Part shown: positions 1 through 7,218 of the stretch, in pieces | How positions within the stretch are numbered: the stretch's first letter is position 1 | How the letters are laid out: the number at the start of each line of letters is the position of its first letter | DNA from: a virus | Virus genome (UHGV): UHGV-0333071 | Reading direction: 5' to 3' (one strand) | Length of the DNA stretch: 24,121 nt | The notes under the pieces: generated by a model | The model's input: only the letters and a program-made list of their open reading frames with translations | Told to the model about the DNA's origin: nothing | The model's database searches: none | Translations under genes and position numbers: made by a program

Positions 1-415
1 GGAGATCGCCATTTTCCGCAATCTGGATGTTTGTCACCCGAACGACAATTACGTCCCAGTCGAGTCCGTCCTGCCGTTCCAGTAATTCAACGTAACCAAT
101 CCCCAGCCGCTCAAAAATGGCAATAAAGCCCGCCACCTCTCCAGCCTGCTGCGCATTGATGAATGCGTAATTCACACGCTTGCGGAAGACGTCGAGCGGC
201 TCCCCCTTGAACCGAACGATGTCGCGTTCCCATGCAATCAGGTTTAACAGCGATTCGGGGCAGACCAGCGGATCAAACTGCTTTAACGGCCAGGTGATCC
301 ACCCGTACACCTGCGACCAGAACTTCACGCAGGCCCGCAGCAGCCTGGCGGGGTCGCCTTTGTTCATCCACGACGGCAATTTCAGACCGGCAAGCAACTT
401 TGAAAACTCAGTCAT
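1..415 (-). CDS. Baseplate/tail protein I-like, partial (N-terminal 138 aa; 3' end beyond the left edge)
   Basis: Minus-strand reading from ATG at 415-413 gives MTEFSKLLAGLKLPSWMNKGDPARLL...LLNLIAWERDIVRFKGE, resembling the conserved N-terminus of P2 gpI-type proteins. The start overlaps the J-like stop in an ATGACTGA junction. Not in the ORF track because it has no stop in the window. Confidence 0.6.
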   Translation of the reverse strand, partial: MTEFSKLLAGLKLPSWMNKGDPARLLRACVKFWSQVYGWITWPLKQFDPLVCPESLLNLIAWERDIVRFKGEPLDVFRKRVNYAFINAQQAGEVAGFIAIFERLGIGYVELLERQDGLDWDVIVVRVTNIQIAENGDL

Positions 416-1592
416 TTTCAATCTCCACCGTTAACCCTGACAGGCGCGGAACCGACAGTTCGCTGACAATATCCGTCAGTGAAAAATGCAGTGAATCGAC
501 AACCGGAAAAGCCTTGTGGATCTCGCGCCCCAGATTCGAAAAGGAATAGCGCGAATAGGGATGCGTCTTCTTAACGTCGTAATTGGCATTCTCGCGAAAC
601 GCGCAACGAATCAGGTCGGTAATACCGGTTTTTAACGCGCTCAGGTCTTCCGCTTCCATGTTTTCCACGCTTTTGACGTATACCGTTACCGCCAGGGTGT
701 GGCTGGTTTCCGGCATGGCATAACACTGAAGATCATCACCGTGTCCGTGGTGGCCCTGGGTATTCACATAGTCGTTAACCGCATCAATAAAGGGCTGCGA
801 TATTTCGCCACTGTCCAGCAACAGGTAAGCATTTGCCGTACCCGGCCCACGCGGGGCATCGTGCAAAAAGTAAATGCGATCAACGCTCAGGCCCAGCACG
901 CTGGCAATCATGCTGCGGTAAATAGCGTCAGAGTGATAATTCCCCACCAGATTAAACTGGTTGCGGGTGCGGTCGCGCAGTTCGTCGTCGCTTTCCTCGT
1001 TAGCCCCTGGCGTAATCAGCCATTCGTCCTCATTGACCGCGCTGGCAATCCCGGCCACCGCAACAGGTAAGATCCGGTAATAGCCGGGCGCAAGGTTATA
1101 GCCGCTGCCGGTGCCGGTCGCCGTGACGGGAACCAGTCCGCTTTCAACCCCGGCAGGCAATGTCACGTCTTCATTCACGGCCAGCACGTAAACCACGCCG
1201 TTAATACGCTCGGTTTGCACCAGTGTTCCGGCAGGCACGACGACCACATCCGCCGCATTCAGCTTGTAGAACCGCAGCACGCCAGCGGCAGCGCTGGCCG
1301 GTTTAGGCACGATATGGACCGCCCAGGCCAGCAGGCGCAGCATGGGACCGCTGGCCGTCGCAACAAACATATTGCGCAGAACCACATCGATCAGCGCCGC
1401 CCGCAGCCATAACACCGGCGTGGTGACAATCTTCGAAATCAGCCGCCAGAAAGGTGACATTCTCGACGTGTTTGTGACAAACCCTTCCGCCTGCACGGTG
1501 GCTTTAAACGCCGCCGTAATTTCGGCCTCTGTCGCGGGCATCCCGCTGTCATTCAGTACCTTTTCAAAATCAACGTCGGGTTTCTCAGTCAT
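408..1592 (-). CDS. Baseplate J-like protein (gpJ / Mu gp47 family)
   Basis: 411-aa ORF in the track; size and sequence character fit baseplate J-like wedge proteins, and it sits upstream of the I-like gene. Preferred start is the ATG at 1592 (GAGG RBS 7 nt upstream; ATGACTGA overlap with the upstream gene) rather than 1643. Confidence 0.7.
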   Translation of the reverse strand: MTEKPDVDFEKVLNDSGMPATEAEITAAFKATVQAEGFVTNTSRMSPFWRLISKIVTTPVLWLRAALIDVVLRNMFVATASGPMLRLLAWAVHIVPKPASAAAGVLRFYKLNAADVVVVPAGTLVQTERINGVVYVLAVNEDVTLPAGVESGLVPVTATGTGSGYNLAPGYYRILPVAVAGIASAVNEDEWLITPGANEESDDELRDRTRNQFNLVGNYHSDAIYRSMIASVLGLSVDRIYFLHDAPRGPGTANAYLLLDSGEISQPFIDAVNDYVNTQGHHGHGDDLQCYAMPETSHTLAVTVYVKSVENMEAEDLSALKTGITDLIRCAFRENANYDVKKTHPYSRYSFSNLGREIHKAFPVVDSLHFSLTDIVSELSVPRLSGLTVEIEND

Positions 1593-1920
1593 AGTTAACC
1601 TCTGTACTGACAGGGCCGAAATCGTAGGTTTCCGCCGTGACATACAACCGCGAAAGGGTTTCTTCGGTGATCACTATGGTTCCTGGGACCAGACGTTCGT
1701 CGCTTTCCACCAGTAAGGACAGCTGCGTCAGCACGTCACCGCGCATTGTCGGGCTGCGTTCACCGATCAGGCGGGTGGTGATACCGCTTTCCAGAATGCT
1801 GTGAATAATGTCCTGGGTGATGCTGTCGCGGTTATCGCAACGGCGCGGCTCATTGCCGCTGTCCAGCGTGAAATCGCCGTCAGTGATCAAAAGGTCGATG
1901 TATAACGGTTCGGTACTCAT
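1585..1920 (-). CDS. Small baseplate protein in the gpW/gp25 position (family uncertain)
   Basis: 111-aa ORF between tape measure and the J-like gene, coupled to both by overlapping stop/start. Assignment is by synteny; it does not obviously match P2 gpW as I recall it. Confidence 0.45.
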   Translation of the reverse strand: MSTEPLYIDLLITDGDFTLDSGNEPRRCDNRDSITQDIIHSILESGITTRLIGERSPTMRGDVLTQLSLLVESDERLVPGTIVITEETLSRLYVTAETYDFGPVSTEVNYD

Positions 1921-5616: not shown

Positions 5617-6072
5617 TCAGCCTTTCAGATCGCGAGTGTCACGGGCTGACAGGTACGGCACGCCGTCAATCGCGACAAAGTCCGGGCTTGTCACCATGAA
5701 TTTAATTTTCTTCGTGGTTTTGCTGGCCTCGTTGGGGTTGATGTTGACGATGTCAGACAGCGAAGGAACGCAGCCAAACACCTCGATTTTTTCTTCGTCG
5801 TCACCGGCATTGGCATAGAACAAAAAGTCCTTTGCCGGAATCGCCCGCCAGGAACCTGCCGAACGGGCCACGGCGGTAAACTTTTTAAAGTTCTGGGAAT
5901 CGACTTCGATTTCCACATCCGCCGAAACTGACCCTTTCGTGTGGCCGTTCGGGACGCCGCGGGTTTGTGCTACCGCGCTGTTGTCCGTAATGGTGACGGT
6001 GGCGTTTTCGACGTGAATCATGATGCCGTCGTAGTTCACATCGAATGATCCACCGCTAATACGTTCAGTCAT
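5617..6072 (-). CDS. Tail tube protein
   Basis: 151-aa ORF directly downstream of the sheath gene with a GGAGAG RBS; size and position typical for a contractile-tail tube. Confidence 0.6.
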   Translation of the reverse strand: MTERISGGSFDVNYDGIMIHVENATVTITDNSAVAQTRGVPNGHTKGSVSADVEIEVDSQNFKKFTAVARSAGSWRAIPAKDFLFYANAGDDEEKIEVFGCVPSLSDIVNINPNEASKTTKKIKFMVTSPDFVAIDGVPYLSARDTRDLKG

Positions 6073-6075
6073 TGA

Positions 6076-7218
6076 TTAGCTCTCCAGTGAGGTGTCCAGT
6101 TCGATGCTGACGCCGATTTCTTTCGCGCTCTCATACGGTCGAACCACAAGGTAAATCTGTACCGCTTCGTTACTGGTCCAGGTGATGGTGATGTCACCGT
6201 CCTTTGGTGGCTTCACTTCGCCCGGAAATTCGACGCCATTGATCTGGGTTGAAATCGCCATTTCGCGCAGCGGCTTGCCGAAATAGGTTTCATGCGCGGC
6301 GATGCTGCCCGGTGTGCTGTTCAGTGAACGATCGGCAATTTTGGGGATTGCACGCAGACGGACGCGGCGGGAGGCTTTATCAACCACGCGCACGTTTTCA
6401 ATCACCTGGTAATCACCGCCTTCAACGTCCAGGGTGCGACCGTCAGCCCAGTAGATGCCGTCATAATCGTGATACCACATCGGCACGCTGTAGCGGTTTG
6501 CCTGCAAGGACTGCAACACGGCCAGATCAATTTCTGCCCCCGTCCCGTCGACCGGCAGACCGTCGCAGCCCAGCGCGGTGACTGCGCCGGTTGCAACGCG
6601 GGCGGGGCTGTCTGCCACCGTCACCGAACGGTTACACAAGCGACCGACCAGGACGCCGGGTTCGTTGCCCCACAGACGCGGGACCAGTTGCACCCCAGAC
6701 GATGCAATACCGTCCTGGAGTGTTGCCAGGCGCGTCACATAGTCGCTCCACGCTTCGTCCTTTTCCGGCCCACCCACAGCAAGGGCAAACCAGATAAAAC
6801 GCCCAAAACTGGCCTGTAAGGTGACGCGCATTTCCGTTGCGCGGTTAATGGTGGCCGCGTCGGCGGTATCAAATGCCAGGACAACCCCTTCCACGGATGC
6901 CACGCTCTGGGCCTGTTTGACCGCGTTCATCCAGTCTTCGTCTGGTTTGTAGCCCTCGGCGTCCTTGTCTGGCTCTGCCAGCACATGCACGTAAGCAAAC
7001 CAGTTCTGACCGGCGTTATTGGCCGCTGCGGCCACCATATTTTTTAACGGGCTGTCTTTGTCGCCCAGGGCTTTATCCAGATCGCTGCCGGTATTCATCG
7101 ACTGGGTTTTCCCGATGTTAGTGTCGCCGTAACCCACAAAGAGGATGACGCGCTCGACGTCGTTCGTTGTGCCGTTGAAGCGGTTTTTCTGACTGACGTT
7201 GACATTCGGCCAGGTCAT
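6076..7218 (-). CDS. Tail sheath protein (non-P2-type sheath family)
   Basis: 380-aa ORF followed by the tube gene; GGGGG RBS upstream. Does not resemble P2 FI as I recall it, suggesting a different sheath lineage. Confidence 0.6.
   Translation of the reverse strand: MTWPNVNVSQKNRFNGTTNDVERVILFVGYGDTNIGKTQSMNTGSDLDKALGDKDSPLKNMVAAAANNAGQNWFAYVHVLAEPDKDAEGYKPDEDWMNAVKQAQSVASVEGVVLAFDTADAATINRATEMRVTLQASFGRFIWFALAVGGPEKDEAWSDYVTRLATLQDGIASSGVQLVPRLWGNEPGVLVGRLCNRSVTVADSPARVATGAVTALGCDGLPVDGTGAEIDLAVLQSLQANRYSVPMWYHDYDGIYWADGRTLDVEGGDYQVIENVRVVDKASRRVRLRAIPKIADRSLNSTPGSIAAHETYFGKPLREMAISTQINGVEFPGEVKPPKDGDITITWTSNEAVQIYLVVRPYESAKEIGVSIELDTSLES

Follow-up and report, generated by a model that had tools for sequence, protein, structure and literature searches.

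The HP1-like viruses were defined by Lavigne et al. 2009 (PMC2771037), and the genus Irrigatiovirus was later placed in the HP1 group on account of its tail proteins (PMC10612066, 2023, Table 2). The latter paper proposes, in its section 4.2, that one branch of the P2-like viruses acquired a much older tail paralogue, gives a timetree in which the split between the sheaths is far deeper than that between the portals, and states that nothing is known of the HP1-type tail module outside the P2-like viruses. Nilsson et al. 2011 (PMC3448106) described prophages of E. coli and Yersinia in which a P2-type regulatory region is combined with HP1-like structural genes. Here, the contractile tail genes of virus genome UHGV-0333071 and the head genes beside them are compared with these systems. 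The stretch analysed, hereafter the window, is 24,121 nucleotides (nt) long, and the tail genes from the sheath onward occupy positions 1-7218. An earlier note on this DNA had read the locus as a mosaic virion, in which a different contractile-tail lineage had been recombined onto a P2 chassis. The analyses below indicate that the window very probably comes from a temperate phage or prophage that belongs to the HP1 group of Peduoviridae and is a near relative of Salmonella phages SI7, SW3 and SW5, and that 1-7218 is a normal HP1-type tail block. That the tail differs from that of P2 is explained by the deep divergence of the tail modules in the HP1 and P2 branches, and there is nothing recent about the head-tail joint in the window.

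Relationship to the HP1 group

The window is 96.5% identical in nucleotide sequence to the Salmonella phages SI7, SW3 and SW5 over 79% of its length, values which were measured on a 24-kb partial genome whose early region and cargo gene differ from those phages (Irrigatiovirus records NC_049460 and MK972712-14). The ICTV criterion for a genus is a nucleotide identity of ~70% over the genome. Homology to the three phages spans positions 1-21931, with the exception of a cargo region at ~15-17.5 kb, the gene order is shared, and the sheath of the window is 98.4% identical to theirs. SI7 is classified as Peduoviridae; Irrigatiovirus, and a search of the literature found no paper on SI7, SW3 or SW5.

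Membership of the HP1 group is apparent at several levels. The divergent Q-P / O-N-M-L layout of P2-family head and packaging genes is present, as seen from Pfam and from BLASTP to both HP1 and P2, and the tail proteins are nearer to those of HP1 than to those of P2, the character used in Table 2 of PMC10612066. The order L-R-S-sheath-tube-lysis-chaperone-tape measure-orf28-orf29-orf30 is also present, colinear with HP1 orf20-orf30 and with 80 loci from IMG/VR. The baseplate, hub and spike region of HP1 orf33-35 type falls beyond the left end of the window and is present in the near-identical SI7, where it includes PF25759 HP1_ORF34 as well as a protein of 574 aa that shows weak motifs of gpV/gp5. 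Since SI7-like genomes are in GenBank and the tail split of the HP1 group is published, the head-tail combination of the window is already known, as are the genome, the architecture and its evolutionary interpretation.

The whole virion block is colinear, gene for gene, with orf15-orf30 of Haemophilus phage HP1 (Hpunavirus; the HP1 group also comprises K139, phiO18P, F108 and ESSI-2). Every virion protein has a match in its counterpart from HP1 (23-63% identity); for the very small DUF6890 open reading frame (ORF) the match comes from tblastn only. Among the tail proteins, identity to HP1 is highest in the DUF2590 protein (63%), the sheath (53%), the tube (52%), I (51%) and J (49%), and lower in the chaperone (37%), S (31%), the tape measure protein (30%) and R (23%). 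Sheath, tube, DUF2590 protein, chaperone and J fall into the same Pfam families in both phages, and HP1 shares with the window the slippery heptamer discussed below. The two differ in host clade, in the type of endolysin, which in the window is an M15 peptidase, and in the DUF6890 ORF, which is unannotated in HP1. They also differ in their switch genes, as HP1 has cI and its own Cox, described as quite different from the P2 type (Nilsson et al., PMC3448106), whereas the window has a P2-type C/Cox switch. The head proteins show the same affinity as the tail proteins, with identities to HP1 and to P2, respectively, of 52% and 33% for Q, 49% and 40% for P, 49% and 36% for O, 33% and 26% for N, 38% and 24% for M, and 38% (orf20) and 25% for L. 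Because the head proteins are nearer to HP1 than to P2, the chassis is, judged by these sequences, that of the HP1 group and not P2's, and the entire virion module, head included, falls within the HP1 branch.

In IMG/VR, 80 contigs with a related sheath (59-98% identity) were recovered. Wherever flanking sequence exists, these contigs hold the same head genes in the same order, and the identities of head and tail drop together. Among 5426 complete genomes of E. coli, 24 also contain the tail segment, and by tblastn the sheath is found in 82 phage records, nearly all of them genomes of ~30-38 kb from gammaproteobacterial hosts. The sole exception in the scan is locus L027 (1-9327), which lacks head genes; here an Irrigatiovirus-like prophage meets a Mu-like one at the latter's right end (gp46, gp47, gp48, fibre assembly, Gin invertase and Mom). 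As a real head-tail mosaic this locus was rejected, the Mu-like prophage being inserted inside the S-like gene and not representing another head; the arrangement fits a transposition of Mu type into a prophage already present.

These comparisons bear directly on the possibility that a P2-like phage newly acquired a foreign contractile tail module. The one point in its favour is the raw observation itself, P2-family heads with a sheath and tube unlike those of P2, and this has to be set against heads that are nearer to HP1, full colinearity with a phage sequenced in 1996, and the presence of the same combination in 80 of 80 contigs, in which the co-divergence of head and tail refutes a recent event. 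In addition, no break in composition is seen at L/R/S/sheath, guanine-cytosine (GC) content being 0.55-0.60 over 1-10 kb, and there are no matches to Mu. A recent recombinant is accordingly highly improbable, and the head-tail combination is a family-wide, old and documented architecture. The proposal of the earlier note thus survives in part. Sheath and tube do form a sequence lineage distinct from FI and FII, but the virion block colinear with HP1, the heads nearer to HP1 and the co-divergence in 80 contigs speak against a particular recombinant on a P2 chassis; a replacement of modules in deep time is plausible, and PMC10612066 (section 4.2) had put it forward before.

A separate observation concerns the head genes O and N, which in L006, L010, L016 and L019 show 74-83% identity among relatives that are otherwise 84-100% identical; in L006, O is at 79% and N at 75%, compared with 92-100% elsewhere. 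This pattern suggests allelic exchange of an O-N segment between close prophages. A weak signal of a separate history of N in the HP1 cluster has been reported (PMC3448106).

Comparison with P2 and Mu

BLASTP and phmmer searches against all P2 proteins detected Q, P, O, N, M, L, S, the holin and gpA, together with a marginal match of the I-like protein to P2 I (BLASTP alone, 26%, E 0.01). In the same searches sheath, tube, DUF2590 protein, J, tape measure protein and chaperone gave no significant match (E > 1e-3). The families differ accordingly, P2 FI belonging to PF04984/PF17482/PF22671 and FII to PF04985, while sheath and tube of the window match PF10758 and PF10772 only. In profile-profile comparisons of the HP1 group with the P2 group by hhalign, sheath/FI, tube/FII and DUF2590/W all had a probability < 1% and none rose above the negative controls, the power of these negatives being limited by shallow P2-group profiles of 2-4 sequences. 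As controls, the capsid was aligned at E = 3e-43 and R to the P2-group R family at E 3e-4. When more relatives of FI were sought with the P2/phiCTX FI alignment, every locus returned had an identity of 97% or more to P2, so that the profile gained no depth.

With P2 the window shares the Q-P / O-N-M-L layout and its families, the L, R and S connectors, of which R (PF06891) and S (PF05069), lying between L and the sheath, belong to P2 families, and the Pfam families of the baseplate proteins J and I. A Y-type holin, an Ogr-like activator, the replication protein gpA and a C/Cox pair 71-81% identical to that of P2 are likewise shared. Unlike in P2, sheath, tube and the protein in the W slot fall into different Pfam families. 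The order of the genes differs as well, as the P2-type order (V-W-J-I-H-G before FI-FII-E-T-U-D, with lysis between L/X and R/S) is not present in the window, which instead has sheath-tube-lysis-chaperone-tape measure-W-J-I. The late genes of the window are packed into what is predicted to be one operon, whereas P2 has three rightward late operons with cargo genes between them. The P2-type Ogr site TGT-N12-ACA has 4 matches in the window against 4.35 expected, none of them in the O/P intergenic region, and the consensus count gives no evidence of exact P2-type late-promoter sites in the window.

The descriptive claims of the earlier note, which dealt with 1-7218, agree with these results. Head and packaging genes with P2-family Pfam domains do follow the P2 layout, at 8386-14822 and hence outside that span; sheath and tube are unlike FI and FII by BLASTP, phmmer, Pfam and hhalign; and the order sheath, tube, lysis, chaperone, tape measure, W-like, J-like, I-like, all on the minus strand, is not that of P2. 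The check which it suggested, BLASTP and profile comparison of the sheath, the tube and the 111-aa protein, gave no match to P2 FI, FII or W. It had also named the outcome that would overturn it, namely high identity of the tail proteins to P2 FI, FII and W, with misannotation behind the difference in gene order. Such an artefact has practically no probability left: nothing was found in its favour, the genes are long non-overlapping ORFs that match curated families at E 1e-42 to 1e-131, they also figure in the annotations of SI7 and HP1, and no method used gave any similarity to FI or FII.

Mu was considered as the donor of the tail and rejected, as no protein of the window matched Mu, L, M and gp41-gp48 included, by tblastn at E <= 0.01. 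The tail order of Mu (sheath-tube-chaperone-tape measure-...-W-like-J-like-I-like-fibre-fibre assembly) is nearer to the HP1-type order than that of P2 is; unlike in the window, hub and spike genes in Mu lie between the tape measure gene and the W-like gene.

Origin of the HP1-type tail module

The depth of the divergence between the two kinds of tail was assessed from relative rates. Within the P2 group (P2 versus phiCTX), FI is the best-conserved virion protein (66%), with FII at 55% and J at 57%, and Q, P and N at 50%, 58% and 53%. Within the HP1 group (window versus HP1), the sheath (53%), tube (52%) and DUF2590 protein (63%) are likewise no less conserved than the heads (33-52%), with Q at 52%, P at 49% and N at 33%. 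Between the groups the heads retain 24-43% identity, whereas any similarity of sheath, tube, W and J is undetectable. These relative rates are not those expected under uniform vertical descent, which is disfavoured because sheath and tube are well conserved within the groups and undetectable between them while the heads are still at 24-43%. Most likely, one branch acquired an old paralogous tail module early in the history of the family, a reading supported by these rates and by the occurrence of DUF2586 sheaths behind Mu-type heads.

One such case is Flavobacterium phage FPSV-S1 (Winoviridae; L004, 19263-20435), in which a full-length DUF2586 sheath (E 6e-51), of a family with at least 2815 database members, is preceded by a portal of Mu type and a terminase of PBSX type. 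In L086/L087, L172 and L173 (sheath at 10001 to ~11300), Terminase_3, Portal_Mu, Mu_F and a Clp protease are found upstream of the sheath, and the Mu-headed DUF2586 phages and prophages are ~35-39 kb in size. As in the window, the sheath of the Winoviridae-like phages is followed by a tube-sized gene, a chaperone-sized gene and the tape measure gene; unlike the window, these phages have a Mu-type head module, their sheath identity is only ~20-28%, and no similarity to the window is detectable in their tube and baseplate proteins. Since DUF2586 sheaths also occur behind Mu-type heads, this lineage of sheaths is not confined to heads of the P2 type. We see an even chance that the DUF2586-type tail constitutes a contractile-tail lineage of its own, which has been combined with no fewer than two unrelated kinds of head, the P2-type in HP1-group Peduoviridae and the Mu-type in Winoviridae-like phages, and which may also exist in a head-less duplicated form (L088). 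L088 itself is a metagenomic locus with two tandem sets of sheath, tube-sized and chaperone-sized genes (10001-13447), the DUF2586 proteins being 395 and 497 aa long; no head genes are present in the 10 kb upstream, where large SprB/Laminin_G3 proteins are encoded. It may represent a tailocin or contractile injection system derived from the DUF2586 tail lineage.

An alternative explanation is pure vertical descent, by which the tail modules of HP1 and P2 would be orthologous, having diverged past recognition and been rearranged with no exchange. It can draw on the P2 Pfam families of R, S, J and I, on the hhalign match between the two R families, on the P2 Y-like holin, on the HHpred matches, in which HP1-group and P2-group tail proteins usually find each other first (PMC10612066, section 4.2) and on the variation of gene order inside the P2 group itself, the T gene of PHL101 for instance being located between S and V. 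It does not, however, readily accommodate sheaths and tubes that are 52-66% identical within groups and undetectable between them beside heads at 24-43%, nor DUF2586 sheaths behind Mu-type heads, nor the published timetree with its far deeper sheath split, and is therefore regarded as rather unlikely. The ancient acquisition of a paralogous module, which is preferred here, is in turn a step that we infer, and a number of points weigh against the overall reading of the window given here. The families shared by R, S, J and I and the holin count here too, HHpred usually pairs HP1-group with P2-group tail proteins before other myoviruses (PMC10612066), and both tail modules may go back to a very deep common descent. 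The sheath is the only part detectably common with the Mu-headed phages, tube and baseplate genes not being so, and the P2-group profiles were shallow. The AlphaFold2 model of the sheath is of low confidence (predicted local distance difference test, pLDDT, 56; C-terminal half < 50), even with a two-clade alignment, and single-operon transcription and the frameshift product are themselves predictions.

Recent joints in the window

The recent joints of the window lie at the C/Cox switch, which is P2-like, and at an ATPase cargo gene of low GC content, not at the head-tail junction. Homology to SI7 ends at 21931, and the remainder (21931-24121) is the immunity/switch region, which is different in SI7. 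C and Cox are 71% and 81% identical to P2, respectively, and only ~44-45% identical to SI7; the integrase gene starts at ~23.77 kb and continues past the end of the window. On these identities the switch region reads as a real and recent mosaic joint. As C and Cox of this kind are combined with HP1-like structural genes, the make-up of the window is that of the prophage class described by Nilsson et al. (PMC3448106).

The cargo gene (15179-17467, minus strand) encodes 762 aa and is located between the Ogr-like gene and gpA. It forms a GC island of 32-41% within a genome of ~55% GC, is absent from SI7, and has matches to AAA_13 (E 2e-38) and to PDC-S06 (E 3e-76), a family of candidate defence genes in PADLOC. 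Likely, this gene is anti-phage cargo in a variable slot comparable to that of old/tin in P2.

Organization of the late genes

The window is densely packed with genes, none of them for a tRNA. On the minus strand, seventeen consecutive ORFs run from 11775 to 1 with gaps of at most 42 nt. Divergent from this row, on the plus strand, lie the genes for the large terminase P (11953-13764; Terminase_6N/6C with a gpP-like N-terminus) and the portal Q (13761-14822; Phage_portal PF04860), followed rightward by an Ogr/Delta-like zinc finger, the low-GC AAA_13 gene, gpA, a Dam methylase, a 186 Fil-like gene, Cox, the C-type repressor and the start of the integrase. The SI7 RefSeq record begins within the portal gene and annotates no full-length portal; at this position an antisense ORF of 198 aa (SI7 318-914, corresponding to 13716-14312 on the minus strand of the window) is called gp01 'hypothetical protein', a probable misannotation.

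The minus-strand row opens with the scaffold/protease O (10717-11775; PF05929), the P2-family major capsid protein N (9666-10688; PF05125) and the small terminase M (8962-9663; PF05944). These are followed by the L-like head completion protein or head-tail adaptor (8386-8919; PF05926, E 6e-35), the R-like tail terminator (7913-8389; PF06891 P2_Phage_GpR, E 9e-19; PHROG 65) and a 231-aa S-like tail completion/Neck1 protein (7221-7916; PF05069, E 7e-7; PHROG 26), which is 31% identical to HP1 orf22 and equally so to P2 S. Next comes the contractile sheath of DUF2586/HP1 orf23 type, with 380 aa (6076-7218; PF10758, E 3e-131; PHROG 907), and the 151-aa tube of HP1 orf24 type (5617-6072; PF10772 Phage_HP1_Orf24, E 2e-52); the labels in PHROGs are "tail sheath" for the former and "tail protein" for the latter. 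The lysis cassette that follows consists of the P2 Y-like holin (5301-5612; PF04550, E 9e-21; 38% identical to P2 Y, E 1e-15), the endolysin of the M15 peptidase family (4976-5314; PF13539 Peptidase_M15_4, E 5e-10) and a spanin pair (4487-4976) read from the sequence. In this pair an Rz-like i-spanin (4593-4976), annotated at the same place in SI7, is overlapped by an Rz1-like lipoprotein ORF of 98 aa (4487-4783) with the lipobox LIITSGC, which is unannotated in SI7 and is a probable Rz1-type outer-membrane spanin.

Beyond the cassette lie the 89-aa tail assembly chaperone (4221-4490; PF10963 Phage_TAC_10, E 8e-30; HP1 orf26), the 61-aa DUF6890 ORF (4033-4218; PF21830, E 5e-22), the 704-aa tape measure protein (1917-4031; PF10145, E 3e-18; PHROG 28), which matches HP1 orf27 over its full length, and the 111-aa DUF2590 protein (1585-1920; PF10761, E 4e-42; HP1 orf28). 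The DUF2590 gene is directly upstream of J, in the position of P2 W and Mu gp46, the slot of the sheath initiator, and it is this gene position only that suggests a W-like role; no PDB relative and, by hhalign, no similarity to the P2 W family was found, and a gp25-like fold could not be demonstrated. The J-like baseplate wedge protein (408-1643, with a likely true start at 1592, as in SI7; PF04865 Baseplate_J, E 2e-28; PHROG 6 baseplate wedge; HP1 orf29) has no BLASTP match to P2 J. The gene for the I-like baseplate/tail protein (1-415) leaves the window, which holds the N-terminal 138 aa only; these match HP1 orf30 at E 1e-45, and the full-length orthologue in SI7 matches PF09684 Tail_P2_I.

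The end of the chaperone gene reads ...GUA AAA AAC UGA, so that a slippery heptamer A_AAA_AAC (~4224-4230) directly precedes the stop codon. From the heptamer on, the -1 frame is open and contains the DUF6890 ORF, between the tube and tape measure genes. In each of 75 related loci, HP1 included, heptamer and frame relation stay the same, while the chaperone itself diverges to 37% identity. By analogy, the DUF6890 ORF is probably the C-terminal extension of a -1 frameshift fusion, like P2 E+E'. Site and ORF are arranged as in the frameshift pairs lambda G/GT and P2 E/E+E', and the fusion protein of the window is predicted from its sequence. In the RefSeq record of SI7 the two ORFs are annotated as separate genes, gp14 and gp15, and are not joined.

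From the gene families and their order we infer how the module most likely works. The genes from O through the tail would be transcribed as one tightly packed minus-strand late unit, in which capsid and L/R/S connectors are followed by the DUF2586 sheath and the HP1-orf24-type tube, with the holin / M15 endolysin / spanin cassette embedded in the operon. The chaperone and its putative -1 frameshift fusion at A_AAA_AAC, extending into the DUF6890 ORF, would come next, then the tape measure protein and the baseplate proteins DUF2590, J and I, with fibres and hub/spike encoded beyond the window. The tube would polymerise on the baseplate around the tape measure protein and the sheath around the tube, and R and S would cap the tail.

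Structure models of sheath and tube

Sequence and profile searches of the PDB with the sheath, the tube and the DUF2590 protein gave no meaningful match. The 13 best Foldseek matches of the sheath model in the PDB are nevertheless all contractile sheaths (E 2e-8 to 4e-4, TM ~0.4), among them those of phage 812, Milano, Lin1278, the contractile injection system of Streptomyces and PVC. The tube model, built from an alignment of database homologues, has a pLDDT of 78, and its best PDB matches are nearly all tail tubes (diffocin, Sf11, T5 pb6, phage 812, phiCD508 and monocin); TM lies at 0.45-0.57 among the top-ranking ones, and E is only ~1e-2.

Implications

The window itself matters little, being an ordinary representative of a phage group that has been described, with near-identical genomes in GenBank. 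The practical value of the analysis lies in annotation, as the Pfam name of the sheath is still DUF2586 and RefSeq leaves the chaperone and DUF6890 ORFs separate. HP1-type tails are common in prophages of Enterobacterales, Vibrio, Pasteurellaceae and Pseudomonas, yet to our knowledge no structure of an HP1-type tail protein has been solved. The existence of two deeply different tail modules on one P2-family head type is already published, and to this the Mu-headed DUF2586 phages add a modest piece. If the DUF2586-type tail is indeed an independent lineage, the Mu-headed loci would be direct comparative evidence for an ancient swap of head and tail modules, which concerns the history of the family and not that of the window.

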